From an uncultured Clostridium sp. (GTDB lineage: Bacteria; Bacillota; Clostridia; TANB77; CAG-508): 64,000 bases of DNA. This document shows, piece after piece, positions 3,622 to 34,715 of this stretch (position 1 is the stretch's first letter; every line of letters begins with the position of its first letter). The notes below the pieces were generated by a model that saw only the letters and a list, made by a program, of their open reading frames with translations, had not been told where the DNA came from and made no database searches. The translations under genes were made by a program, and so were the position numbers. The stretch is taken from assembly GCA_964371215.1 (NCBI GenBank), contig CAYJKU010000001.1:172412-236411 (forward strand), written 5' to 3'.

Positions 3622-4290
3622 ATGTATATGAAAAAAAATCAAATAAGTTCAAATGAAATAGTTAAGGTAGAAAATATAATAGATTATAATAAAAAATTAG
3701 AAGTAAGAGATAAAACATTTGAAAAATTAATGTTTGTATATAGTTTGGCAATAAGACAATTAGAACATAATATTAAAGTCATAAAAGATGAATATGATAT
3801 TTTATATGATTATAGATTAATAGATAACATACAATCTAGGATAAAAAGTCCAGAAAGTATTGTTAAAAAAATGGAAAATAAAAAATTAGAATTGACATAT
3901 AAAAATATGATGAATAATATAAATGATATAGCGGGAATAAGGATAATATGTCCACTTAAAAAAGATATATATACAATACAAAATATATTAGAAAAAATGG
4001 ATGATGTAAATATTATTAAAGAAAAAGATTATGTTAAAAATCCAAAGGAAAGTGGATATTCTAGTTATCATATTGTAGCAGAAGTTCCTATTAAATTATC
4101 TCAGAAAAATACATATATAAAAACAGAAATACAAATAAGAACAATAACAATGGATTTCTGGGCAGGGTTAGAACATAAGATGATGTATAAGCCAAATGGA
4201 GAAATAAATATTAAAAACCAAAAAGAGTGGAAAAAATGTGCAAAACTTATTTCGAAAATAGATGAAAAGATGATGTTAATTAATAATTAA
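3622..4290 (+). CDS. Small alarmone synthetase (RelQ/RelP-type GTP pyrophosphokinase, RelA_SpoT domain only)
   Basis: DIAGIRIICP, SGYSSYH and EIQIRTITMDFWAGLEHKMMYK motifs. About 220 aa, single domain. Confidence 0.85.
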   Translation: MYMKKNQISSNEIVKVENIIDYNKKLEVRDKTFEKLMFVYSLAIRQLEHNIKVIKDEYDILYDYRLIDNIQSRIKSPESIVKKMENKKLELTYKNMMNNINDIAGIRIICPLKKDIYTIQNILEKMDDVNIIKEKDYVKNPKESGYSSYHIVAEVPIKLSQKNTYIKTEIQIRTITMDFWAGLEHKMMYKPNGEINIKNQKEWKKCAKLISKIDEKMMLINN

Positions 4291-4302
4291 GAATGTGTGA
4301 AA

Positions 4303-4333
4303 TTGTCAGAAAAGGGATTTTTGGCAATTTTTT
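4303..4333 (+). terminator. Intrinsic terminator after the alarmone synthetase gene
   Basis: A 10-bp stem (ttgtcagaaa / tttttggcaa, with G-U pairs) followed by a T6 run. Confidence 0.6.
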
Positions 4334-4409
4334 AGCATAATTAGAAGGATTTATGTAAAACGCGTAGAATATTATAATTACATGAATAAAAAAGAAAGGA
4401 TGGGAATTT

Positions 4410-6194
4410 GTGAGATATAGTCAACAAACAATCGATGAGGTAAGACAAGCTAGTGACATAGTAGATGTAATATCTGGATATGTTCAGCTAAAAAGAAAAG
4501 GCAGAAATTATTTTGGATTGTGTCCATTTCATAATGAAAAATCGCCATCGTTTGCAGTTTCGCCAGATAAACAAATTTTTCATTGTTTTGGGTGTAATGA
4601 AGGTGGAAATGTATTTACATTTTTATCTAAAATAGAAAATTTAGGATTTGTAGAAACCATACAAATGCTTGCAGAAAAAGCTAATATGAATATAGTACCA
4701 ATTGATAATAATCAAGATATGTCAAAAGAGATATTAAAAGCGAAGGTATATAAAGTAAATGAATTTGCTGCACAATATTATCATGAAAACTTATATAAGC
4801 CACAATCTAAAGTGGCACAAGAATATATAAAACAAAGAAAATTAACAAATAATACATTAAAAGCATTTCAATTAGGTTTTTCAGGTAAATTTGATGAATT
4901 ATATAAAGAGTTAATTAAAAATGGTTTTGAGGAACAAGAAATTTTAGAGTCAGGTTTAGTAAATAAAAATGATAATGGAACATATATAGATAGATATAGA
5001 AATAGATTAATGTTTCCAATATGTGATGCAAGAGGAAAAGTAATTGGATTTGGGGGAAGAGTATTAGATGATTCTAAACCCAAATATATAAATTCACCAG
5101 AAAACTTAGTATATAATAAAAGTAGAAATTTATATGGATTAAATGTAGCTAAAAAAAGTGATACTAAAAAAATCATAATAGTTGAAGGATATATGGATGT
5201 TATATCACTTTATCAAAGAGGTATAACAAATGTAGTTGCACCACTTGGAACAGCACTTACAACTAATCAAGGATGGTTACTTAGAAATAATTCAGAACAA
5301 GTAGTTATAAGTTTTGATTCAGATGAAGCTGGTAAAAAAGCTAAATTAAGAGCAGTAGAAATCCTTCAAGAAATGGGAATAGATATTAGAATCCTTAATA
5401 TTGAAGGAGCAAAAGATCCAGATGAATATATTATTAAATATGGTAATGCTAGATTTAATAATATAGTTGAAAAAGCAATGTCTGTTGTTGAATTTAAAGT
5501 AAGTATTTTAAAATCTGAATTAGATTTAGAAAATACAAGTGATAAAATTAAATTTTTAAATCAGATAGCAAAATTAATTTCTAAAGTTTCAAATACAATG
5601 GAAAAAGAAATATATATTGAAAAAATAGCACATGATTATAATATTTCAAAAGAAGCAATTTATTCAGAAGTAAATAAATTAATTTATTCTGAAAATAAGC
5701 TTGAAAAAAATCAAGAACCTGTCAAAAATATTCCACAGGTATCTAATCAAAATAATATTAAAATAAAAGTATCAGATGCTACTATTAAGCGAGAAAACAC
5801 AATAATATATATGTTATTAACAGAAAATACAAACATCTTTGAATTAATTAAGCAAAATATTAAAGAAGAAGATTTTAAATATGAATTAAATAATAATATT
5901 GTAAAAGTATTGTATGAAGAATTTGAAAAAGGTAATAGTAATATAAATGGAATAATAGATACTTTGGAAAAAGATGAACAAAACCATATTTCATCAATAT
6001 TAATTGAAGACCATGAAATTAAAGATATAGAAAAAGCAATAGACAATATATTAACTAATTTTACTAAAGGGAAATTAACAGAAAGAAAACTAGAGATTCT
6101 AAATTTATTAGATATAGTATCAAATGATGAAGAAAAATCAAATTTAGAAAAAGAATTAAATCAAATAATAATAGAAATGGCTAAAATAAAATAG
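4410..6194 (+). CDS. dnaG: DNA primase
   Basis: GTG start. Zinc ribbon [17 protein letters not shown], a TOPRIM region ([15 protein letters not shown]), and position directly upstream of rpoD. Confidence 0.95.
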
Positions 6195-6201
6195 GAAGGA
6201 A

Positions 6202-7347
6202 ATGTTTACGATGAGTAAAGAAAATGAAATAAATAACGAAAAATTAAATAATCAAACAGATGGAGAAAACTTAAAAGACGAAAAAGTAAAGAGTATATTA
6301 AAAAAAGCTAAAGAAAAAGGAACAATAACATATGGAGATTTAGCGACAGAATTAGATGAAGTTAATCCAGAGCAAATAGACAAGGTATTTGATGCATTTG
6401 AAGAATTAGGTGTAGATCTATTAAATGAAGAACTAGAAGAAGAACCAGATATAGAAGATTTAAAAGAAGTAGAAGACTTAAGAATAGAAGCATTAACAGA
6501 TGCTAATTTCGATAATATAAATGTTGATGATCCTGTAAGGATGTATTTAAGAGAAATTGGAAGAATACCACTTTTAACTTTCGAACAAGAGGCAGAACTT
6601 GCAGAAAAAATACTTGCAGGTGATGAAGAGGCAAAACAAATTTTATCTGAATCAAATTTAAGATTAGTTGTAAGTATAGCTAAAAAATATGTAGGTAGAG
6701 GAATGCTATTTTTAGATTTAATTCAAGAAGGAAATATGGGATTAATAAAAGCAGTTGAAAAATTCGATTATTTAAAAGGATTTAAATTCAGTACGTATGC
6801 AACTTGGTGGATTAGACAAGCAATAACTAGAGCTATTGCAGATCAAGCAAGAACAATAAGAATACCAGTTCACATGGTTGAAACAATAAATAAATTAATT
6901 CGTACATCAAGACATCTATTACAACAATTAGGAAGAGAACCAAGTCCAGAAGAAATATCTAAAGAAATGGAAATACCAGTACAAAAAGTATTAGAAATAC
7001 AAAAAATAGCACAAGATCCAGTATCATTAGAAACACCAATAGGTGAAGAAGAAGATAGTCATTTAGGAGACTTTATTCAAGATGAAGATTCTCCAGCACC
7101 ACATGATTCAGCTGCATATACATTATTAAAAGAACAATTAGAAGAAGTAATAAATACTTTAACACCAAGAGAAGCTAAAGTTTTAAAATTAAGATTTGGA
7201 TTAGAAGATGGGAAAGCTAGAACATTAGAAGAAGTTGGGCGTGAGTTTGAAGTAACAAGAGAAAGAATAAGACAAATTGAAGCTAAAGCTTTAAGAAAAT
7301 TAAGACATCCTAGTAGAAGTAAAAAATTGAGAGATTATATGGCATAA
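6202..7347 (+). CDS. rpoD: Primary RNA polymerase sigma factor
   Basis: Regions 2-4 are conserved ([67 protein letters not shown]). Confidence 0.97.
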
Positions 7348-7359
7348 AATGGAGGAAAA

Positions 7360-8427
7360 ATGAACGAAGTTTTAGAAACAATAAATAGAGAACTTGTATT
7401 TAATATTGTAATTGCAATTGCAATTGTTATACTTTTTCAAACATTAAGTAGTAGCATAGCATATTTTATTGTAAGATTATTTAAGTTCAATAGAAGAAAA
7501 ACTAAAGCAGTAAAAGAAATTAGAGAATCAGCATTCTATAATCCACTTAAAGTATTTTTTATGATTTTAGGTGTATATGTTGGTTTCATATATTTAAGAA
7601 CACCACTTAATATATCTGAAAATATAATGGGAATTGTTACATCTATATTTAAAGTTGTAAGTATTTTAGCATTTACAAGAGCCTTAGCAGCTAGTTTTGT
7701 TGATGATTCAAGTTTGGTGAAAAAAATTAGAAAGAAATACAAAAAAGAAGATGATGACAATATGTTTTCTGTTGTATTAAAAGTTGTTAGAGCAATAATA
7801 TATACAATAGGAGTATTAGTTGTAATAATTGTATTAGGTATAGATATTACAGGTTTAGTTGCAGGTCTTGGTATAGGGGGTATTGTAATAACTCTTGCTG
7901 CACAAGATACAGCTAAAAATCTTTTGGGTGGTGCCATGATATTTATGGATAAACCATTTGCAGTTGGGGAATGGATTCAAATAGATAAATATGAAGGAAC
8001 AGTTGAAGATATAACTTTTAGAAGTACGAGAATAAGAACATTTGAAAATGCATTAGTAAATATACCAAATGGTAATGTTACAAGTACATCACTAACTAAT
8101 TGGAGTAAAATGGAAAAAAGAAGATATAAAACAAATATAACAGTTGAATTAGCAACTCCATTAGAAAAATTAGAAAGATTTAAGTTAAGAGTTGAGAACA
8201 TGTTAAAAGAACGTGAATCAATATTAGAAGATTCTATTATAGTTAAATTTGATATTATTAGAAGTAATAGTTTAAATATTTTAATATATAGTTTTGCAGA
8301 TTGTGTAGATTATATAGGGTTTTTAACAGAAAAAGAAAACATAAATTATAAAATAATGGCAATAGTTCATGAAGAAGGTATAAAACTTGCATGTGATGAA
8401 CAAACAATAAATATTAAAAAAACTTAA
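7360..8427 (+). CDS. Mechanosensitive ion channel (MscS family)
   Basis: TM helices followed by LAAQDTAKNLLGGAMIFMDKPFAVGEWIQI..GTVEDITFRSTRIRT. Confidence 0.88.
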   Translation: MNEVLETINRELVFNIVIAIAIVILFQTLSSSIAYFIVRLFKFNRRKTKAVKEIRESAFYNPLKVFFMILGVYVGFIYLRTPLNISENIMGIVTSIFKVVSILAFTRALAASFVDDSSLVKKIRKKYKKEDDDNMFSVVLKVVRAIIYTIGVLVVIIVLGIDITGLVAGLGIGGIVITLAAQDTAKNLLGGAMIFMDKPFAVGEWIQIDKYEGTVEDITFRSTRIRTFENALVNIPNGNVTSTSLTNWSKMEKRRYKTNITVELATPLEKLERFKLRVENMLKERESILEDSIIVKFDIIRSNSLNILIYSFADCVDYIGFLTEKENINYKIMAIVHEEGIKLACDEQTINIKKT

Positions 8428-8428
8428 A

Positions 8429-8456
8429 AGTTAAACATATATGTTTGACTTTTTTT
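8429..8456 (+). terminator. Intrinsic terminator
   Basis: Hairpin agttaaacata/tatgtttgact followed by T6. Confidence 0.7.
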
Positions 8457-8519
8457 CACAAAATAGACATAATATATTGGTAAAATAGGTGTATTAATTT
8501 AAATATAGGAGTGATAAAA

Positions 8520-9197
8520 ATGAGTAATAAATCTATACTTGTAGTAGATGATGAAATAAGAATGAGAAAATTAATAAAAGATTTTCTTACATCAAAAGGA
8601 TATAGTATTATAGAAGCAGAAGATGGAGAAAAAGCATTAGAGGTATATGAGGAAAATAAAAATAAGATTGAATTGATTTTATTAGATGTCATGATGCCAA
8701 AACAAGATGGGTGGTCAGTTCTTAGAAAAATAAGACAAGAATCAAATATTCCAATAATAATGTTAACAGCAAGAGGTGAAGAACAAGATGAGCTTTTTGG
8801 ATTTGAATTAGGTGTAGATGAATATATATCAAAACCATTTAGTCCTAAAATTTTAGTTGCAAGAGTTGAAGCGATACTAAAAAGAGTAAGTGCAAATGAA
8901 AATGAAGTTTTAGATATTGCTGGAATTGAAATAGATAGAGAAGGTAGAATTGTTAAAATTGAAGGAAAAACAATTGAAATGAGCCTAAGAGAATTTGAAT
9001 TATTAATATATTTAATAGAAAATCAGAATATAGCACTTTCAAGAGATAAAATATTAAACAGTGTGTGGAATTATGATTATTATGGAGATTCAAGAACAAT
9101 AGATAGTCATGTCAAAAAAATCAGACATAAATTAGGTAAAAAAGGAAAATATATCAAGACAATGAGAGGTATTGGATATAAGTTTGAAATAAAATAG
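8520..9197 (+). CDS. OmpR-family response regulator
   Basis: Receiver domain (LVVDDE, DVMMP, MLTA) plus winged-helix C-terminus (RTIDSHVKKIRHKL, MRGIGYKF). AGGAG lies 8 nt before the ATG at 8520. Confidence 0.92.
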   Translation: MSNKSILVVDDEIRMRKLIKDFLTSKGYSIIEAEDGEKALEVYEENKNKIELILLDVMMPKQDGWSVLRKIRQESNIPIIMLTARGEEQDELFGFELGVDEYISKPFSPKILVARVEAILKRVSANENEVLDIAGIEIDREGRIVKIEGKTIEMSLREFELLIYLIENQNIALSRDKILNSVWNYDYYGDSRTIDSHVKKIRHKLGKKGKYIKTMRGIGYKFEIK

Positions 9198-9206
9198 GAG
9201 AAATTA

Positions 9207-10712
9207 ATGGAGAAATTTAAAAAATTAATAAGATCAGTTAGAGTTAAATTGTTTTTGTTAATATCTATAATAATATTAGCAATAATACTATTTTTAATAG
9301 TAGTTAATAACTTAATATTTGCTACATTTTATATGTATGCAAAAACAAATTCTTTAAAAGTAGCATATGAAGATATTCAAACTTGTAGTAGTAACTTAGA
9401 AGATCCAAGTGTAGAAACACATTTAGAAGAAATAGCAACAAAAAATGATTTTGATATAGTAATTAGAAGTGACAAAAACACAAGTTTGTATACATCAAAT
9501 AAAGATTTTTTTGTTACATTTAATGAGATTAATAGTATAACAAATGGGAATTATGTAGGTGAAGGATCTAGAGTATTAGAGAAAACAGATAAATATGAGA
9601 TTTTAGATGTACAAGATACTAGAAATGGAATGGATTATATACTATTATCTTCTGAACTTGAAAATGGAATGTCTGTACATATTAGAACACCTGTAAGTTC
9701 AATATATGAGAGTGTAAATATATCTAATAACTTCCTATACTTAATGGCTGGATTTGCCATATTATTATCTGCAGTAATTGTTACATTTGTATCTAGAAAA
9801 TTCACTGATCCAATATTAGAATTAAATAAAATAGCTAAAAAAATGAGCAATTTAGATTTTACACATAAATATCAAGAAGGAAAAATCGATGATGAAATTA
9901 ATACATTAGGTAAAAGTATTAATACAATGTCACAAAAATTAGAAGGAACAATAAAACAACTAAGAGCTACAAATATTGAACTTGAAAAAGATATTGAAGA
10001 AAAATCTAAAATAGATGAAATGAGAAAAAGCTTCATATCTGATGTATCACATGAATTAAAAACACCAATAGCACTTATACAAGGATATAGTGAAGGATTA
10101 CTAGAAAATGTTAATAGTGATGAAGAAAGTAGAAAATTTTATGCTGAAGTAATTTTAGATGAAACAAATAAAATGGATAGACTTGTAAAACAATTATTAG
10201 AACTTATGAAATTAGAATATGGAAAAAGAGAATTTAATGATAAAGAATTTAATATTGTTGAATTACAAAAAGAAATAATAAGAAAATCTAAAGTTATGTT
10301 AGAAGAAATGCAAATTGTAGTTAAATGGGATACATCTGAAGAAATAACTGTATTTGCAGATGAATTCTATATTGAACAAGTAATAACAAATTATTTAACA
10401 AATGCTATAAAATTTGCTAAAAATATAGATAAAAAAGAAAAAATAATTAGAATAACAAATACTGTTGATGTGAAAAATAATAAAGTAAGAATTAAAGTAT
10501 TTAATACAGGTGAGAGTATAGAAGAAGATAAAATTATTAAATTATGGAACAGATTTTATAAAACAGATGAATCAAGAAATAGAGAAAATGGTGGAACAGG
10601 AATTGGTCTTGCTTTTGTTAAGGCAATAATGAATAATTATAACAATGAATATGGTGTTATAAATATAGATGATGGTGTAGAATTCTATTTTGATTTAGAT
10701 ATGAAGATTTAA
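9207..10712 (+). CDS. Sensor histidine kinase (two TM helices, HAMP, HisKA, HATPase_c)
   Basis: H-box FISDVSHELKTP, N-box YLTNAIKF, G-box GGTGIGLAFVKAI. Confidence 0.92.
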   Translation: MEKFKKLIRSVRVKLFLLISIIILAIILFLIVVNNLIFATFYMYAKTNSLKVAYEDIQTCSSNLEDPSVETHLEEIATKNDFDIVIRSDKNTSLYTSNKDFFVTFNEINSITNGNYVGEGSRVLEKTDKYEILDVQDTRNGMDYILLSSELENGMSVHIRTPVSSIYESVNISNNFLYLMAGFAILLSAVIVTFVSRKFTDPILELNKIAKKMSNLDFTHKYQEGKIDDEINTLGKSINTMSQKLEGTIKQLRATNIELEKDIEEKSKIDEMRKSFISDVSHELKTPIALIQGYSEGLLENVNSDEESRKFYAEVILDETNKMDRLVKQLLELMKLEYGKREFNDKEFNIVELQKEIIRKSKVMLEEMQIVVKWDTSEEITVFADEFYIEQVITNYLTNAIKFAKNIDKKEKIIRITNTVDVKNNKVRIKVFNTGESIEEDKIIKLWNRFYKTDESRNRENGGTGIGLAFVKAIMNNYNNEYGVINIDDGVEFYFDLDMKI

Positions 10713-10768
10713 AAACAAATATATTCTTTTGTATCTACTTCTTCGAGTGAAGATTTTAACTAAAACTA

Positions 10769-10797
10769 TTGACAATAAAAAAAGATAAATATACAAT
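10769..10797 (+). promoter_or_regulatory. Sigma-A promoter TTGACA-17-TACAAT (copy 1)
   Basis: TTGACA at 10769-10774, exact 17-nt spacer, TACAAT at 10792-10797. Confidence 0.6.
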
Positions 10798-10839
10798 AAT
10801 GTAGAAAATAGTTAAAACAAATGAAAAGAGGCAGATACT

Positions 10840-10947
10840 ATGAAAAAATATCACAGCCTAAGAGTAATTGACAAAAAAAGAGATAAAAAAGAAGCAAGAT
10901 ATAGAACAAGTTTAATTAAAGTCATAGATAACAGTGGCTTTGATTAG
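10840..10947 (+). CDS. Candidate 35-codon leader ORF (MKKYHSLRVIDKKRDKKEARYRTSLIKVIDNSGFD), copy 1
   Basis: GAGG lies 8 nt upstream of the ATG. The stop codon lies inside the 3' arm of the downstream hairpin. Too short for the ORF track. Confidence 0.3.
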   Translation: MKKYHSLRVIDKKRDKKEARYRTSLIKVIDNSGFD

Positions 10948-10958
10948 ACTTGTTTTGT
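10905..10958 (+). terminator. Terminator/attenuator-like 17-bp hairpin in the 5' leader (copy 1)
   Basis: Arms aacaagtttaattaaag (10905-10921) and ctttgattagacttgtt (10938-10954) pair at all 17 positions, 2 of them G-U. Followed by ttgtt. Confidence 0.45.
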
Positions 10959-11021
10959 TATAAATAAAATTTAGAATTAAAATATGAAATTTATAAAAAA
11001 ATAAAAGGAGATAATAGTTGC

Positions 11022-12317
11022 ATGAGAGAAAAAAATAAAGGTATAACATTAATAGCACTTGTTATTACAATAATAGTATTAATAATATTGGCAGGAGTAT
11101 CAATAGCAATGTTGACAGGAGAAAATGGAATATTGACACAAGTGGCTGAAGCGACAAAGGCGACGGAAGAAGCAGAGATTGAAGAAAGAATAACTTTGGC
11201 AATAAATGGTAGTTACGATAATACAGGGAAAATAAATGTGGATAAATTAAAGGATGAATTAATAAAAATTCCTGGAATAACAAAAGAAGATGAAAGTGGA
11301 ATAATAAAAACAGATTTTCCGAATACATTACCATTTGAATTTAAAGTAGATGGATATGATGTCAAAATAACTTCAAGGTATGATATAGAAATAGACGTTG
11401 AACCACTGTATGTTGGACCAATAGGTGGAGGGACTTTTACGGATAAAGCAAATAAAACAGCATATGTACCTGAAGGAGGAGAAGTATCAAGTAAGGAAAC
11501 AGAAGATGAAATATCAGAAGGATTAGTAATGGAACTAGATAATAGTGAATATGTATGGGTAGAAGTTCCAAGAGAAATATTTATATCAGCAACTTCAAAT
11601 ACAGACTATGCAGAGATTCAAAATGATATATTAGGATATTTAACAGATAGTGGGAATACTATAAATCCAAGTAATTATAGACTGAAATCAGGAACAAATG
11701 CAAATGCAAGAGAAGCAGGAGATATTGAGTTAGCAGAGTCATGGTATAACGGTAATGGATTAACAGAAGAAGAATATGTAGAGTTGAAGGAAAATATATT
11801 AAATGGAATATATGAAAATAGTGGGTTTTGGATTGGAAGATATGAGGTTGGGAATCAATCAGATATAGCAGTAATACAGTATAATCAAACACCGTATACA
11901 AATCTAACATTAGCAGAATCTCAAGCAAAAACTAAGGATTTAAATGATAATGCAACATTAATGCTAGGTATACAATGGGATTTGACATTGAAATTTATGG
12001 AAGAAAAAGGATTAACAAAAGATGGTATTGATGTAGATTATGAAATGGTATTTAGAAATAGTGATTCTATAGGGAATTATAACGGAGTAAGAGCAAATAC
12101 TGGAGCAACAGAAAAAGCAACAGTGTTAAATATATGTGATCTAGCAGGTAATGTAAGTGAATGGACACTAGAAAGAAGTACGTCAGGATACTATATCTGT
12201 ACACTTAGAGGAGGAACAGCTAACTATTCGGGAAGTGTAATTCCGGCAGGAATAAGAACAAGTAATACAATAACTACTGCTCATCAGGATATTGGTTTTA
12301 GAGTTGTATTATATTGA
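11022..12317 (+). CDS. Prepilin-like N-terminus fused to a C-terminal FGE-sulfatase (SUMF1)/C-type-lectin-fold-like domain; probable surface protein
   Basis: MREKNKG/ITLIALVITIIVLIILAGVSIAML resembles a class III (prepilin) signal, but residue +5 is Ala. C-terminal motifs are FWIGRYEVG, GNVSEWTLE, LRGG and IGFRVVLY. Confidence 0.6.
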   Translation: MREKNKGITLIALVITIIVLIILAGVSIAMLTGENGILTQVAEATKATEEAEIEERITLAINGSYDNTGKINVDKLKDELIKIPGITKEDESGIIKTDFPNTLPFEFKVDGYDVKITSRYDIEIDVEPLYVGPIGGGTFTDKANKTAYVPEGGEVSSKETEDEISEGLVMELDNSEYVWVEVPREIFISATSNTDYAEIQNDILGYLTDSGNTINPSNYRLKSGTNANAREAGDIELAESWYNGNGLTEEEYVELKENILNGIYENSGFWIGRYEVGNQSDIAVIQYNQTPYTNLTLAESQAKTKDLNDNATLMLGIQWDLTLKFMEEKGLTKDGIDVDYEMVFRNSDSIGNYNGVRANTGATEKATVLNICDLAGNVSEWTLERSTSGYYICTLRGGTANYSGSVIPAGIRTSNTITTAHQDIGFRVVLY

Positions 12318-12397
12318 TATTTTTAGAGTATAAATGAAGAAGGAAGTAAAAGATATTAAAAAATATTGTAATTATAATTGGTGAAATAATTGATATG

Positions 12398-12692
12398 GAT
12401 AATGGATTTTCAAATATAAGTATGTAATTTAGAATATAAATAAGAAAATAAATTAGAAGAGTTAGGGATAAAACATAAATTAATAAAGCCCTATACTCCA
12501 AGACATAATGGAAAAGTAGAAAGAAGCCATAGAAAAGATCAAGAAAGATTTTATTATAAAAAAATATTTATAAGTTTAGAAGATTTAAAAAGTGCAGCAA
12601 AATATTGGATAAACGAATATAACAATTTTCCAATGAGACCACTCAAATGGCTAAGTCCAAAGGAAAAATATTTAGAATATATAGCAAGTTAA
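12398..12692 (+). pseudogene. 3' remnant of an IS481/IS3-type DDE (rve) transposase, frameshifted and 5'-truncated
   Basis: Frame 3 reads ENKLEELGIKHKLIKPYTPRHNGKVERSHRKDQERFYY...NNFPMRPLKWLSPKE, ending at the stop at 12690-12692. An upstream DNG-like piece (MDNGFS) is in a different frame. No start codon or N-terminal half is present. Confidence 0.7.
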
Positions 12693-12799
12693 AGTACATA
12701 AATAGCATATAATGTATTTCAAAGGTAGTAATAACAAGAAAGTGTGACATATGTTTGACAAACCTACACTTCTTCGAGTGAAGATTTTAACTAAAACTA

Positions 12800-12828
12800 T
12801 TGACAATAAAAAAAGATAAATATACAAT
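12800..12828 (+). promoter_or_regulatory. Sigma-A promoter TTGACA-17-TACAAT (copy 2)
   Basis: Same sequence as 10769-10797. Confidence 0.6.
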
Positions 12829-12870
12829 AATGTAGAAAATAGTTAAAACAAATGAAAAGAGGCAGATACT

Positions 12871-12978
12871 ATGAAAAAATATCACAGCCTAAGAGTAATT
12901 GACAAAAAAAGAGATAAAAAAGAAGCAAGATATAGAACAAGTTTAATTAAAGTCATAGATAACAGTGGCTTTGATTAG
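12871..12978 (+). CDS. Candidate 35-codon leader ORF, copy 2
   Basis: Identical to 10840-10947. Confidence 0.3.
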   Translation: MKKYHSLRVIDKKRDKKEARYRTSLIKVIDNSGFD

Positions 12979-12989
12979 ACTTGTTTTGT
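12936..12989 (+). terminator. Terminator/attenuator-like 17-bp hairpin (copy 2)
   Basis: Identical to 10905-10958. Confidence 0.45.
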
Positions 12990-13052
12990 TATAAATAAAA
13001 TTTAGAATTAAAATATGAAATTTATAAAAAAATAAAAGGAGATAATAGTTGC

Positions 13053-14546
13053 ATGAGAGAAAAAAATAAAGGTATAACATTAATAGCACTTGTTATTACA
13101 ATAATAGTATTAATAATATTGGCAGGAGTATCAATAGCAATGTTGACAGGAGAAAATGGAATATTAACACAAGCAATAAATGCGGGAGATGAAAGTAAAA
13201 AAGCAGAGGAAGAAGAAAAGTTAAGATTAGCATTAATAGAATATAAAGCACAAAAATATACAGATAATAAAGACTTAAAAGAATTTTTAGAAAGCCATAA
13301 AGATATATTATCAGTAGAAGGAGATACTGCACCATATACAGTAATAGTAGATGAATATCAAGTAGAAATAGATGTAAATGGAGAGTATGTTGAAAATGAT
13401 TTTCAGTTAGCAGGACCAAGACCAAAAGTGGAAAATATAAAAGTAACAATAGATGGAATAATAGAACCAACTAATGGAAGTTTGGAAGAAGGAACAACAC
13501 TACAAATAAACTTTGATACAAGTATAGAAAGTGGAACAATAAAATCAATTTCGCCACAATTGCCATACACAACAAATGGAACAGATAAAGAAATAGAATT
13601 TACAATAATAGGAACAGTAAATGGAGTAGATTATACAATAACAAGAAAAATATCAGTAGAAAATAAATATCGTGAATTATCAGAAATTGAAAAAGCAGCA
13701 TTGACATCAGAGATAGAAGTGTTCTCGACAATGGAAAATAGAGAAATAAGAGATGAATATAATAATAAAATTATGATTCCTGCAGGATTTGGAATAGCAT
13801 CAGACTCAGGTGTAAATGTAACAGAAGGTATAGTAATAGAAGATGCCGATAATGGAAATCAATTTGTATGGATACCGGTAGGTGATATAAATAATAATGG
13901 AACAAATGTAAACATACAATTATCCAGATATAAATTTGATGCAGATGGAGATGAAACTGCGATAGGATTACAAGAATCAGTAAATAATTATGGATATGCA
14001 GAAGAACAAATAGGAACAAAAGGAAATGCAGTAGCAAAAGATTTAGGAGAATTCATATCGAAAACAGAAGCTTCAGGAGGATATTATATAGCAAGATATG
14101 AGGCAAGTAATAATAATGGAGTGGTAGAAAGTAAAGGGAATAAAGAAGTATGGGGAAATATAAGTCAATTAGAAGCATCAACAAAATCAAAAGAAATGTA
14201 TAAAAATGAAGTAACATTTGCAAGCGATTTAGTAAATTCACTTGCATGGGATACAGCATTAGTATGTATACAAAAATTTACAGAATATACAAATTATTCA
14301 AAACAAGGAAGTGCAAATGAATTAAGGGAGAATACTGGATTATCAGAAGATCAAAAATTGAAAATATATGATATGGCATCAAATATATATGAATTAAGTA
14401 CAGAGACATATAGAGATTCAAATGACTCAGCTGTGATTAGAGGTGGGTATTATCGTATTACTACTAGTAAAACTGATTTTAGAGATCATCGAGATGCTAA
14501 TTATAGTAGTAATGATATAACTTTTAGAGCTATTTTATATCTATAA
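13053..14546 (+). CDS. Paralogous prepilin-like N-terminus with a variable middle region and an FGE-sulfatase/C-type-lectin-fold-like C-terminal domain
   Basis: The first 40 aa are identical to the 11022 gene. Later motifs are NQFVWIPVG, YYIARYEAS, NIYELSTE, IRGGYY and ITFRAILYL. Confidence 0.6.
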   Translation: MREKNKGITLIALVITIIVLIILAGVSIAMLTGENGILTQAINAGDESKKAEEEEKLRLALIEYKAQKYTDNKDLKEFLESHKDILSVEGDTAPYTVIVDEYQVEIDVNGEYVENDFQLAGPRPKVENIKVTIDGIIEPTNGSLEEGTTLQINFDTSIESGTIKSISPQLPYTTNGTDKEIEFTIIGTVNGVDYTITRKISVENKYRELSEIEKAALTSEIEVFSTMENREIRDEYNNKIMIPAGFGIASDSGVNVTEGIVIEDADNGNQFVWIPVGDINNNGTNVNIQLSRYKFDADGDETAIGLQESVNNYGYAEEQIGTKGNAVAKDLGEFISKTEASGGYYIARYEASNNNGVVESKGNKEVWGNISQLEASTKSKEMYKNEVTFASDLVNSLAWDTALVCIQKFTEYTNYSKQGSANELRENTGLSEDQKLKIYDMASNIYELSTETYRDSNDSAVIRGGYYRITTSKTDFRDHRDANYSSNDITFRAILYL

Positions 14547-15481: not shown

Positions 15482-15591
15482 AGTGAGCGTATTAATCACA
15501 CAAATGGAGTTTTTAGGTAGTGCTTAAATAATTAAGTCCTGGAAAACGATGAAATTTGTGGAAGAAAATAACAAACAAGGAGGAATTTAAA

Positions 15592-18854: not shown

Positions 18855-19772
18855 ATGGAATTCAAACAAGAACTAAAAAAGTATCAAGATATAGTAAATA
18901 AAGAAATAGGAAAATATAAAATTATAGAAGATAAAAGTCCAGAAAAAATGCTTAATGATTCTATAGAATATAGTTTTATTTCAGGAGGAAAAAGGCTAAG
19001 ACCAATATTGGTTTTAGCTACATATTCTTTATTTAAAGATGAAATTAATGAAGTGTTGCCATATGCTATAGCGATAGAAATGGTACATAATTTTTCATTA
19101 ATACATGATGATTTACCAGGAATAGATAATGATGATATAAGACATGGAAAACCAACAAATCATAAAAAATTTAATGAAGCAACAGCTATATTAGCAGGTG
19201 ATAGTTTATTAAATAAAGCATATATATTAATTAGTGAAGATTTAAATAAAGAAATGAGTAAGCACATAGATTGTGGAAAACAGAATATAAATTTAGAAAA
19301 GAAATTAAAAATATTTAATGAATTTGGGATAGCTGTTGAAAGAATGATTGCAGGAGAATATGTAGATACAGAGGTTGAAGGAACCAAAATAGACAAAGAA
19401 TGTTTGGAATATATCCATAAAAATAAGACAGGAGCATTACTTAAATTATCTGTGAGAATGGGAGCGATTCTATCAACAGATAATATAGATGATGTGGAAA
19501 GATTGACTAAATATGCAGATAAAATAGGTTTAGCTTTTCAAATAAAAGATGATATATTGTCTGAAGAAGGTGATGAAGAAACATTAGGGAAACCAGTAGG
19601 AAATGACAAAAAAATGGATAAGTGTACATATGTTTCTGAATATGGAGTAGAAAAAGCAAAACAAATTTTAGATGATGTAATAAATGAAGCAATAGAACAA
19701 ATTGAAATATATGGAGCTAAAGCAGAGTTTTTAAAACAATTAGCGATATATATAAAAAATAGAAATAAATAG
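18855..19772 (+). CDS. ispA: Short-chain (E)-polyprenyl diphosphate synthase (FPP/GGPP synthase)
   Basis: First Asp-rich motif LIHDDLPGIDNDDIRHGKPTNH. Second motif FQIKDDILS. Also GKPVGNDKKMDKCTY. Confidence 0.88.
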   Translation: MEFKQELKKYQDIVNKEIGKYKIIEDKSPEKMLNDSIEYSFISGGKRLRPILVLATYSLFKDEINEVLPYAIAIEMVHNFSLIHDDLPGIDNDDIRHGKPTNHKKFNEATAILAGDSLLNKAYILISEDLNKEMSKHIDCGKQNINLEKKLKIFNEFGIAVERMIAGEYVDTEVEGTKIDKECLEYIHKNKTGALLKLSVRMGAILSTDNIDDVERLTKYADKIGLAFQIKDDILSEEGDEETLGKPVGNDKKMDKCTYVSEYGVEKAKQILDDVINEAIEQIEIYGAKAEFLKQLAIYIKNRNK

Positions 19773-19787
19773 AAAAGAGTGTATGAA

Positions 19788-20501
19788 ATGGAATATGATA
19801 TGAATTTTCTACCAAAACATATAGCGATTATTATGGATGGGAATAGAAGATGGGCAAAAGAAAAATCAAGACCAGCAAGTTTTGGACACAAAGAAGGTGC
19901 AAAAACATTAGAAAAAATTGTTAGATATGCAAAAGAAATAGGAATAAAATATATAACAGTTTATGCGTTTTCAACAGAAAATTGGAAAAGAGCTGAAGAA
20001 GAAGTAAAAGCATTAATGTTATTACTTAGAAATTATTTAGATGATTATGCAAAAAAAGCAGATACTGAAAATACCAAAATAAGAGTTTTAGGAGATATAT
20101 CAGCATTATCTGATGACTTACAAAAAAGTATAAATAATTGTATGAAAAGAACTGAAAAAAACACAGGCATAACTTTTAATATAGCTCTTAACTATGGTGG
20201 TAGAGATGAAATTATAAATGCAGTAAAAGAAATTTCTACAAAAATTAAAAACGAAGAAATAGATATTCAAGATATAACAGAAGAATTAATATCAAATAAT
20301 TTATATACAAAAGGTGAACCAGATCCAGACCTGATGATTAGAACAAGTGGAGAATTAAGATTAAGCAATTTCCTACCATGGCAATTAGTATATTCTGAAT
20401 TCGTATTTGTTGAAAAAAATTGGCCTGATTTTGGAAAAGAAGATTTAGATGCCGCAATAGTTGAATATCAAAAGAGAACAAGAAAGTTTGGTGCAAACTA
20501 G
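19788..20501 (+). CDS. uppS: Undecaprenyl diphosphate synthase
   Basis: HIAIIMDGNRRWAK, ITVYAFSTENWKR and IRTSGELRLSNFLPWQ motifs. The start is ambiguous (GTG 19779, ATG 19788 or 19797). Confidence 0.93.
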   Translation: MEYDMNFLPKHIAIIMDGNRRWAKEKSRPASFGHKEGAKTLEKIVRYAKEIGIKYITVYAFSTENWKRAEEEVKALMLLLRNYLDDYAKKADTENTKIRVLGDISALSDDLQKSINNCMKRTEKNTGITFNIALNYGGRDEIINAVKEISTKIKNEEIDIQDITEELISNNLYTKGEPDPDLMIRTSGELRLSNFLPWQLVYSEFVFVEKNWPDFGKEDLDAAIVEYQKRTRKFGAN

Positions 20502-34094: not shown

Positions 34095-34123
34095 TTGGAA
34101 TAAATCTGGAAAAATTGTATAAT
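34095..34123 (+). promoter_or_regulatory. Sigma-A promoter TTGGAA-17-TATAAT driving the large ncRNA
   Basis: TTGGAA at 34095-34100, 17-nt spacer, TATAAT at 34118-34123. Confidence 0.55.
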
Positions 34124-34129
34124 ATATAC

Positions 34130-34715
34130 CGATGGTGCATTATTCTAGTCATGCAAACTTTATGAGGGTGGGGCTAAAAATCCACTAAAGGACATATCGT
34201 TGAAGTTTCTTATTTATGCGCGAAATGCCAGTTTTGTGTGTATCTAGGGAGTAAAGGTGTTAGGGTATTATATAATGGCATATATAAAATCCCTAATTCC
34301 GTGGAGGCTTAAAAGTAATTTTAAGTATAACCTACGTTGAGTGCCAAGACACAAAAAACGTAGCGTAGTCTGTCTTGAGTGAAAATATTGGGATTAGTTT
34401 ATCAATTATGAAATTGTTTTTGCAAAAAAGACTAGTAAAGGTAATTTGCATGTTAAGGAAAACTTCTAGGATGTTTGCTTACATCTATTAGCAAAAAAGT
34501 CTAGGGATTAAGGTACAGATTTGAGTGGCGATCTGGTGTCTATTTATTTAAATAGATGTTTCTTTTAAACGGAAACGACTCTTATAGTAATATAAAGTAA
34601 GAAATAGAGAAATTCAACCAGACCTAAACTGTAAAATTTACTTAGGCTTTTACCATCTAGAGAGAATATAATGTAGATAGATTTAATCTGATTTGGATTT
34701 TATCTGTCTATTTTC
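34130..34715 (+). ncRNA. Large structured non-coding RNA, OLE-like (ornate, large, extremophilic RNA class); boundaries approximate
   Basis: About 585 nt with no ORF on either strand and visibly more G/C than the flanks. Many local helices, including cttaaaa-GTAA-ttttaag (GNRA loop, 34307-34324), caagaca/tgtcttg (34346-34376), tgcaaa/tttgca and tctattta/taaataga. A motif CTAG(GGA)nTAAAGGT recurs three times. It has its own promoter and a 3' hairpin with a T-run at 34672-34716. Directly upstream of a 4-TM OapA-like gene. Confidence 0.55.

Follow-up and report, generated by a model that had tools for sequence, protein, structure and literature searches.

What is encoded by two neighbouring genes of an uncultured Clostridium sp. 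that open with the same promoter, leader and N-terminus before their bodies part, and how did their identical front ends arise? We examined this question in a 64-kb (64,000 nt) stretch of contig CAYJKU010000001.1, referred to below as the window, within which all positions are counted and in which an exact direct repeat of 398 bp leads into two open reading frames (ORFs), ORF A and ORF B. The evidence set out below suggests that ORF A and ORF B probably belong, as paralogues of long standing, to a very large group of modular type IV pilins from uncultured gut Clostridia. The features on which the argument turns are the following.

10737..11134, + strand: repeat copy 1, with a promoter-like site, a leader ORF, a hairpin, a ribosome-binding site (RBS) and codons 1-38 of ORF A
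11022..12317, + strand: ORF A, 431 aa, pilin-like N-terminal module and predicted head of the formylglycine-generating enzyme (FGE)-sulfatase/C-type-lectin-like fold
12444..12692, + strand: 5'-truncated remnant of an IS481-family transposase, consisting of the last 82 codons (12444-12689, rve_3) and the stop codon
12768..13165, + strand: repeat copy 2, upstream of ORF B and running into it
13053..14546, + strand: ORF B, 497 aa, pilin-like module, immunoglobulin (Ig)-like spacer and predicted FGE-sulfatase/C-type-lectin-like head

The two proteins have 41 of their first 44 residues in common and are 26% identical over the C-terminal ~170 aa, in agreement with the initial annotation, which had described two ORFs of 431 and 497 aa that diverge past the repeat. 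In ORF A, a leader (residues 1-7, ending in Gly) and the hydrophobic alpha1-N (8-31) are followed by a pilin-like module at ~37-125, composed of alpha1-C and four strands, and by the head at ~137-431; ORF B has the same leader and alpha1-N, a pilin-like module extending to ~110, the Ig-like spacer at ~120-205 and the head at ~238-497. Profile alignment with hhalign paired the families of the two ORFs from end to end as homologues (probability 100%, E 9e-64), with an extra insertion of ~100 residues in the ORF B family that takes the form of an Ig-like sandwich in the AlphaFold2 model. All four motifs previously ascribed to both ORFs were present, namely GFWIGRYE/GYYIARYE, NVSEW/NIYEL, RGG and GFR/TFR. 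The nearest relatives were P0002 for ORF A (49% identity) and P0122 for ORF B (65% identity).

Both ORFs begin MREKNKG↓ITLIALVITIIVL..., that is, MREKNKG↓ITLIA..., where the arrow marks the cleavage predicted after Gly7. A class III signal consists of a short hydrophilic leader, Gly at -1, ~21 mainly hydrophobic residues and Glu at +5 (PMC4471445). This Glu5 is nearly invariant in bacterial pilins, being dispensable for cleavage and required for homopolymer assembly (PMC4471445), and its absence is normally confined to the tip-capping subunit (PMC4471445, PMC10191384, PMC9934059). The short hydrophilic leader ending in Gly-1 is present in both ORFs, and the hydrophobic stretch after the cleavage site, ITLIALVITIIVLIILAGVSIAML, spans 24 residues. 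Gly-1 was found in 93 of 93 family members of the related loci, with leaders of 5-30 aa, and the N-terminal ~38 residues are strongly conserved across the family, Gly-1 and Thr+2 being invariant. The AlphaFold2 models of both ORFs predicted a long split N-terminal helix and then a four-stranded sheet: the first helix covers residues 10-32 in ORF A and 5-32 in ORF B and is followed by a second long helix, and in the ORF A model a helix at 37-62 precedes strands at 86-89, 105-109, 112-116 and 122-125, an order that fits the pilin fold. The family profiles matched Geopilin domain 1 (E 7e-4) and MshA in PDB, and the N_methyl profile (PF07963) was matched by 44 of 67 B-type members at E<0.01.

Further evidence on the nature of this N-terminus came from seven related loci in metagenome-assembled genomes (MAGs). 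Six of them (L079, L072, L077, L069, L071 and L087) hold a full PilD-PilB-PilT-PilC set, and the seventh (L034) holds the upstream part of the operon only (PilM/N, PilO-like, small ORF and pilin) before the locus ends.

L079:7140-17440: type IV pilus operon of a relative, its gene order repeated in five further MAG loci

Each operon encodes 1-3 small proteins of 136-169 aa that start M..(K/R/N/S)G↓ITLIALVITIIVLLILAGVSIAMLTG(E/D/Q)NGIL. In L079, three tandem genes encode proteins of 159-168 aa that start M..NKG↓ITLIALVITIIVLLILAGVSIAMLTG(E/Q)NGILTQA and match ORF A and ORF B almost residue for residue in the first ~35 positions of the mature protein; N_methyl scores of the pilins in this operon were 20.4 and 18.8 bits. 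The small pilins are flanked on one side by a PilM/N fusion, a PilO-like gene and a small ORF, and on the other by a prepilin peptidase (PF06750, E 5e-30) and two minor pilin-like genes, after which come PilB (PF00437, E 1e-93), PilT and PilC (PF00482). The operons were located by tblastn with the L079 proteins, the PilB of the relatives carrying APTGEGKTT, not GPTGSGKT. In four MAGs, a locus with the pilus operon and a full-length B-like protein occur together (L020 with L079, L014 with L077, L078 with L069, and L025 with L034).

All small pilins of these operons have Ala5. Of the two minor pilins, one (G↓FTGIDIS...) has Asp at +5, the sole acidic residue at this position, and the other has Thr or Ser; no G-x4-E pilin was found in 1.33 Mb of related loci. 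Since the small pilins in the pilus operons of relatives have the same N-terminus, the Ile+1/Ala+5 oddity is the norm of this lineage. Judged from these sequences, the N-terminus of ORF A and ORF B is almost certainly the class III signal and alpha1-N of the lineage's pili, with Glu5 lost lineage-wide, and the earlier suggestion of a non-canonical class III prepilin signal is borne out. The operon pattern reverses the usual rule, by which Glu5 belongs to the major pilin and is missing from the cap, and a limited literature search found no bacterial pilus with Glu5-less major pilins. As a side observation, the L079 prepilin peptidase (L079:11570-12418) matched Pfam over its N-terminal domain alone (A24_N_bact, E 5e-30); no match to the Peptidase_A24 catalytic domain was obtained at E<=0.01, and a GxGD-type second Asp motif was not seen by eye. 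We also observed that in L071 (17282-20799) and L077 (~19475-20071) only a few kb separate the pilus operon from rpsB, which lies downstream of it, and that the ORF A/B pair occupies the corresponding neighbourhood of the window, upstream of rpsB at 15556.

What do the heads add to this picture? The Pfam family PF03781 matched ORF A over residues 358-429 only (21.2 bits against a cut-off of 23.3, E 2.5e-4), and was matched at E<0.01 by 31 of 78 relatives of ORF A and 32 of 67 relatives of ORF B. The AlphaFold2 model of ORF A had a mean predicted local distance difference test (pLDDT) score of 76.6, mostly >85 within the head, and in a Foldseek search its top matches were the variable proteins TaqVP, TvpA and Mtd of diversity-generating retroelements (DGRs), followed by CarF, PvdO, EgtB, OvoA and PorK. 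Nearly all of the top 50 matches have the FGE/C-type-lectin fold (best E 1.5e-3, probabilities mostly 0.8-1.0), and PDB searches with the single sequences yielded nothing useful. The fold proposed in the initial annotation is thereby supported by the sub-threshold Pfam match of ORF A, by the PF03781 matches of relatives and by the structure search with ORF A. In human FGE, the catalytic Cys pair sits after the GGS motif. No Cys was present C-terminal of RGG in ORF A, ORF B or the family consensus, and because this pair is missing, we read the heads as binding modules, not enzymes. That the proteins are active formylglycine-generating or related enzymes anchored in the membrane is scarcely credible: Pfam and some database names do place relatives under 'FGE family', but the catalytic pair is absent and the fold search ranked DGR variable proteins, which are not enzymes, at the top. 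The heads of ORF A and ORF B are, as predicted by structure search for the former and by profile alignment for the latter, non-enzymatic domains of the FGE-sulfatase/C-type-lectin-like fold. The most variable part of the family lies between RGG and GFR, matching the position of the variable region in DGR systems.

Several results weigh against reading these proteins as pilins with FGE-type heads. Mature +1 is Ile and +5 is Ala in both ORFs, so that Glu5 is lacking; the N_methyl scores (13.2 bits for ORF A and 13.0 for ORF B) fall below the cut-off of 21.2; and Foldseek returned no pilin match for the N-terminal module, other domains dominating the results. No pilus machinery, prepilin peptidase or small pilin was found in the 64-kb window, which agrees with the earlier remark that pilus assembly genes are missing nearby, and the family genes are scattered outside pilus operons. 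As to the heads, the PF03781 score of ORF A lies under the gathering threshold, ORF B itself gave no PF03781 match at E<=1, and Foldseek with the whole ORF B model gave Ig-like matches only. The structure prediction called for in the initial annotation therefore returned the FGE/C-type-lectin fold for the ORF A model alone, and the FGE-type fold of the ORF B head rests on its hhalign alignment to the ORF A family.

Two other readings draw on the same observations. Ordinary type II membrane proteins, whose uncleaved signal-anchor resembles a pilin signal and whose ectodomains work independently of pilus machinery, would suit the Ala in place of Glu at +5, the sub-threshold N_methyl scores and a window devoid of pilus genes. 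This is very unlikely, since the identical sequence, with its invariant Gly-1 and Thr+2, heads pilin-sized proteins beside the prepilin peptidase in seven operons, and since conservation of the N-terminal ~38 residues goes far beyond the need of a plain anchor. The alternative of surface display without a filament, in which the class III signal would act as a general export and anchoring tag for a short pseudopilus or patch, like the 'bindosome' of Sulfolobus (a precedent described in PMC4471445), has more in its favour: the same N-terminus stands on very many scattered proteins of varied size and head, and all family members lack Glu5, the absence of which in classical systems prevents homopolymer assembly. 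We nevertheless regard it as fairly unlikely, because the operons of relatives hold PilT and full-length small pilins, like those of ordinary retractile type IV pili, and because the characterised modular pilins, PilB and PilC of Streptococcus sanguinis, are carried on pili.

The family of pilin-headed proteins to which we assign ORF A and ORF B is very large. More than 7,800 of 8,000 scored candidates matched each of the two queries, and the number of matching clusters at 50% identity was 18,781 at E<=1e-3 and 3,252 at E<=1e-10. All 80 of 80 related genome loci belong to MAGs of uncultured Clostridia or Bacillota, and their isolate names point largely to animal or human gut (rabbit, chicken, buffalo rumen, Hadza people). 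Some members bear the database names 'FGE family protein', 'PilE' or 'ComGC'. The genes are monocistronic or stand in tandem arrays amid housekeeping genes, and their neighbours are not conserved. The same N-terminus also stands on other heads, including a beta-helix-like repeat (L076), proteins of 600-670 aa (L021) and a different C-type-lectin head (L054). The FGE-type head, for its part, is a widely reused module: giant proteins carry many tandem copies of it (P0241 with 5309 aa and 18 matched stretches, P0242 with 3527 aa, P0243, P0246 and P0247), and in many proteins of ~400 aa the head starts from ~75-100 with no reported match to the query pilin module.

Some pilin-headed relatives are DGR targets (L054:9989-13599, L082:9947-11173 and L070:1274-2752). 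In all three, the 3' end of the gene, as variable repeat (VR), pairs with a nearby AAC-rich template repeat (TR), with mismatches concentrated at template adenines, and L054 additionally has Avd-like ORFs and a reverse-transcriptase ORF (RYQDDF). A DGR was also sought in the window and rejected, as no second copy of any part of the ORF A or ORF B body and no ORF of >=150 codons with a reverse-transcriptase-type YxDD motif was found there.

How, then, did two old paralogues of this family come by an identical front end? The initial annotation had reported an identical repeat of 397 bp at an offset of 2031; the repeat is in fact exact over 398 bp (10737-11134 = 12768-13165, offset 2031), with one base more at the 5' end. 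With a background identity of ~35%, an exact match of this length by chance is practically impossible (~0.35^398). The 5' edge is abrupt, ungapped identity at offset 2031 being only ~30-40% just upstream, and the 3' edge is gradual, identity falling from 86% to 60% and then to background in ~100 bp downstream, within a stretch where ORF A and ORF B are already homologous. Neither the 398-bp module nor the N-terminus occurs in the window beyond these two copies.

Across MAGs, the first ~100 coding bases are ~75-87% identical at the DNA level, a similarity that selection on the peptide can explain; it cannot explain the 285 non-coding bases that are 100% identical between the two copies. Because these bases are identical and the bodies are long diverged, a recent transfer of the 5' region of one copy to the other is required, and the repeat fits recent recombination between two old paralogues, as read from the sequence. 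Two routes both fit, namely gene conversion and homologous (Campbell-type) insertion of a segment with one module copy. Repeat copy 2 starts 75 bp past the stop codon of the IS481-family remnant (PF13683, E 3e-13), whose best annotated matches are IS481 family transposases and of which no other copy was found in the window; the right end of the remnant may coincide with the repeat boundary at 12767/12768.

Relatives show comparable mosaics. Pairs that are identical at the 5' end and divergent at the 3' end occur in tandem arrays of L031, L055, L046, L021 and L016. P0122 and P0123 agree completely as far as about residue 215 and diverge from there, and P0124 and P0125, 13 kb apart, have in common a TTGACA promoter region of ~155 bp and the first ~900 nt, beyond which identity is random, the drop falling inside the head. 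Breakpoints thus lie at different depths among paralogue pairs. These pairs, coming from independent assemblies, also bear on whether the repeat is an assembly artefact, produced by a wrong join over a repeat longer than the reads or by merged strain variants. The sequence seems to come from a metagenome-type assembly, its organism being uncultured, and a 398-bp exact repeat exceeds the typical short-read length; yet the junctions of the module with the histidine kinase gene upstream of copy 1 and with the IS remnant upstream of copy 2 are different unique sequences, and the ORF A body, the IS remnant and the module are continuous, so at least two module copies must exist. An artefact is therefore highly improbable.

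The recurrence of such mosaics with varying breakpoints, together with perfect 398-bp direct repeats that flank the body of ORF A and the DGR diversification of other members, which shows selection for head variation, could also speak for programmed head switching, in which RecA-dependent deletion or exchange between the repeats, or with other genomic copies, would give rise to phase or antigenic variation. We consider this distinctly unlikely. Both copies are complete, promoter-bearing genes with their own RBS and start codon, unlike the promoterless silent cassettes of pilE/pilS; no recombinase or invertible element was found in the window and, as noted above, no DGR; deletion between direct repeats would be one-way; and occasional evolutionary recombination explains the pattern equally well. 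Of the two ideas put forward in the initial annotation, gene conversion or a cassette-style system, recent recombination is upheld by the identical non-coding bases, and a programmed cassette switch is possible, with nothing in the window that requires it.

Apart from the coding start, the repeated module contains the following candidate expression signals, and all the elements previously listed for it were located in both copies.

10769..10797 (twin 12800-12828), + strand: sigma-70-like promoter TTGACA-17-TACAAT, 11/12 matches, by consensus match only
10840..10947 (twin 12871-12978), + strand: putative 35-codon leader ORF (MKKYHSLRVIDKKRDKKEARYRTSLIKVIDNSGFD), with GAGG 8 nt 5' of the ATG
10901..10958 (twin 12932-12989), + strand: terminator-like 25-bp AU-rich hairpin, then a U-rich tract

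The repeat closes with an RBS, AAAGGAG, and with codons 1-38 of the respective ORF. At its 3' end the leader ORF runs into the hairpin; folding of the 231-nt leader RNA gave a z of -5.3 against shuffles, and terminator-like calls numbered 2 against 0.4 expected. A weaker promoter-like site at 10955-10983 is a candidate driver of the pilin gene. A riboswitch or other known RNA in the leader was considered and rejected, Rfam giving no match at gathering thresholds across the window and none at E<=10 over 10700-11100. When relatives were searched for the module and its N-terminus, as the initial annotation had advised, the N-terminus proved widespread, and the 285 upstream non-coding bases and the leader peptide had a counterpart in 0 of 88 related loci; the leader peptide likewise had no Pfam match and no tblastn match across these loci, and a 23-mer from the hairpin did not occur in the genome and JGI metagenome collections searched. 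Because no counterpart exists in related loci, the leader ORF and hairpin are locus-specific and any role for them is speculative; the promoter-like site is likewise peculiar to this genome. Translation-dependent read-through is conceivable, in that a ribosome completing the leader ORF would melt the hairpin, or the leader ORF may be an independent mini-gene with its own terminator, the site at 10955-10983 driving the pilin gene.

The genes immediately upstream form a two-component pair.

8511-9197, + strand: OmpR-type response regulator (Pfam), a neighbour of the pilin genes only
9207-10712, + strand: HAMP/HisKA histidine kinase (Pfam), a neighbour of the pilin genes only

The proposal that this pair regulates the pilin-headed genes found no support in comparison with relatives. 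L076:8984-18903 is syntenic with window 3622-10712 (a small alarmone synthetase-like gene, dnaG, rpoD, MscS, response regulator and histidine kinase), with amino acid identities of 87% for rpoD, 82% for the response regulator and 67% for the histidine kinase. In L076 a sortase follows the histidine kinase, with no pilin-headed gene there; a 373-aa pilin-headed protein with a repeat-rich head is instead encoded upstream of dnaG, where the window has none. Control by the adjacent system is therefore unsupported by synteny, the more so as other family members lack such a neighbour, and from the same synteny the A/B locus is an insertion into a conserved backbone. Elsewhere in the window, which has a G+C content of 26%, we observed a full-length OLE (ornate large extremophilic) RNA at 34116-34672 on the + strand (313.6 bits), a marker of an anaerobic Bacillota source.

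A mechanism can be proposed from these results. The leader would be cleaved by a prepilin peptidase encoded in a pilus operon outside the window, the shared hydrophobic helix would dock the protein into a type IV pilus, most likely as a tip or low-abundance subunit, and the ligand bound by the head would probably be a glycan or a different molecule exposed on the host or on other microbes. Recent non-reciprocal recombination, whether gene conversion or homology-driven insertion beside the IS481 remnant, probably copied one promoter, leader and 5' coding segment onto both genes, such that both heads would be made from identical expression signals and on an identical helix; family-wide, recombination at the conserved 5' end would repeatedly set different heads behind the same front end. 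We infer cleavage, pilus incorporation, ligand binding, promoter activity and the pilus operon in this genome. A broader and more doubtful possibility, which we put forward tentatively, is that the lineage maintains a combinatorial repertoire of pilus-borne adhesins, with Ala5 major pilins (and Asp5 in one minor pilin), an invariant helix by which the products of many scattered adhesin genes, each bearing a promoter, would all plug in, and heads reshuffled at the 5' end and in some cases hypermutated by DGRs, of which the 398-bp module would be a fresh example.

On its own, the duplicated module is a modest result, the footprint of a recent recombination. Modular pilins, however, are a recently recognised route to sticky pili of which few have been studied, and this locus opens a very large unstudied family. 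If the proteins are indeed pilus-borne, they would stand out as candidate adhesins by which abundant uncultured gut bacteria bind the host or glycans, and would offer a natural test of the role of Glu5 in filament assembly, and recombination, joined in some relatives by DGRs, would diversify the pilus adhesins of Gram-positive bacteria.

Of the systems already known, the nearest are two modular pilins from Streptococcus sanguinis, PilB (pilin and vWA) and PilC (pilin, Ig-like and lectin) (Raynaud et al. 2021, PMC8179133; Shahin et al. 2023, PMC9934059). Both ORFs combine an N-terminal pilin motif with a domain that is not pilus-specific, which is the definition of a modular pilin; they resemble PilB and PilC in having a short pilin module with a linker-borne grafted module, putatively adhesive in ORF A and ORF B, and ORF B further repeats the PilC order of pilin, Ig-like domain and lectin-type head. 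PilB and PilC differ in their canonical Glu5 and in being encoded within the pilus operon as a single copy each, whereas the A/B family has an FGE/C-type-lectin head, Ala5, multiple copies scattered or in tandem outside the operon, a recombining 5' end and, in some members, DGR targeting. Glu5-less tip pilins (GspK/PilK, and PilA of S. sanguinis) likewise lack Glu5, are bulky or tip-located and start filament assembly; in those systems the capping subunit alone lacks Glu5, whereas here the small pilins of the operon lack it too.

With the DGR variable proteins Mtd, TvpA and TaqVP, its top structural matches, the head of ORF A has in common the FGE-type C-type-lectin fold. The window differs in lacking a template repeat and a reverse transcriptase, variation here arising through paralogy and recombination, not mutagenic retrohoming, and the DGR-targeted relatives carry a C-type-lectin head of a different subtype from that of ORF A and ORF B. 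DGR-diversified pilus adhesins are known in Bacteroides. The likeness to Neisseria pilE/pilS and to the 'orphan' cassettes of contact-dependent inhibition (CDI) and Rhs systems is that variable 3' or C-terminal parts are swapped by recombination through homology in a conserved 5' or N-terminal part, an exchange that in the A/B family is suggested by the mosaic paralogues. The copies here differ in being full genes with their own promoter and start codon, with no silent cassettes, G4 element or immunity genes. The architecture itself, which the initial annotation had taken to be uncharacterised, was already listed in the 2021 census as N_methyl plus SUMF/FGE (IPR012902-IPR005532, 8 proteins; Dataset S1, PMC8179133) and is named in databases; the statement stands for experiment, no experimental study of any pilin with an FGE-type head having been found in the literature. 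Set against PilB and PilC, the family differs in its FGE-type head, in an Ala5 signal common to the major pilins, in scattered multi-copy genes outside the pilus operon, in a 5' end that recombines and in the targeting of some members by DGRs.

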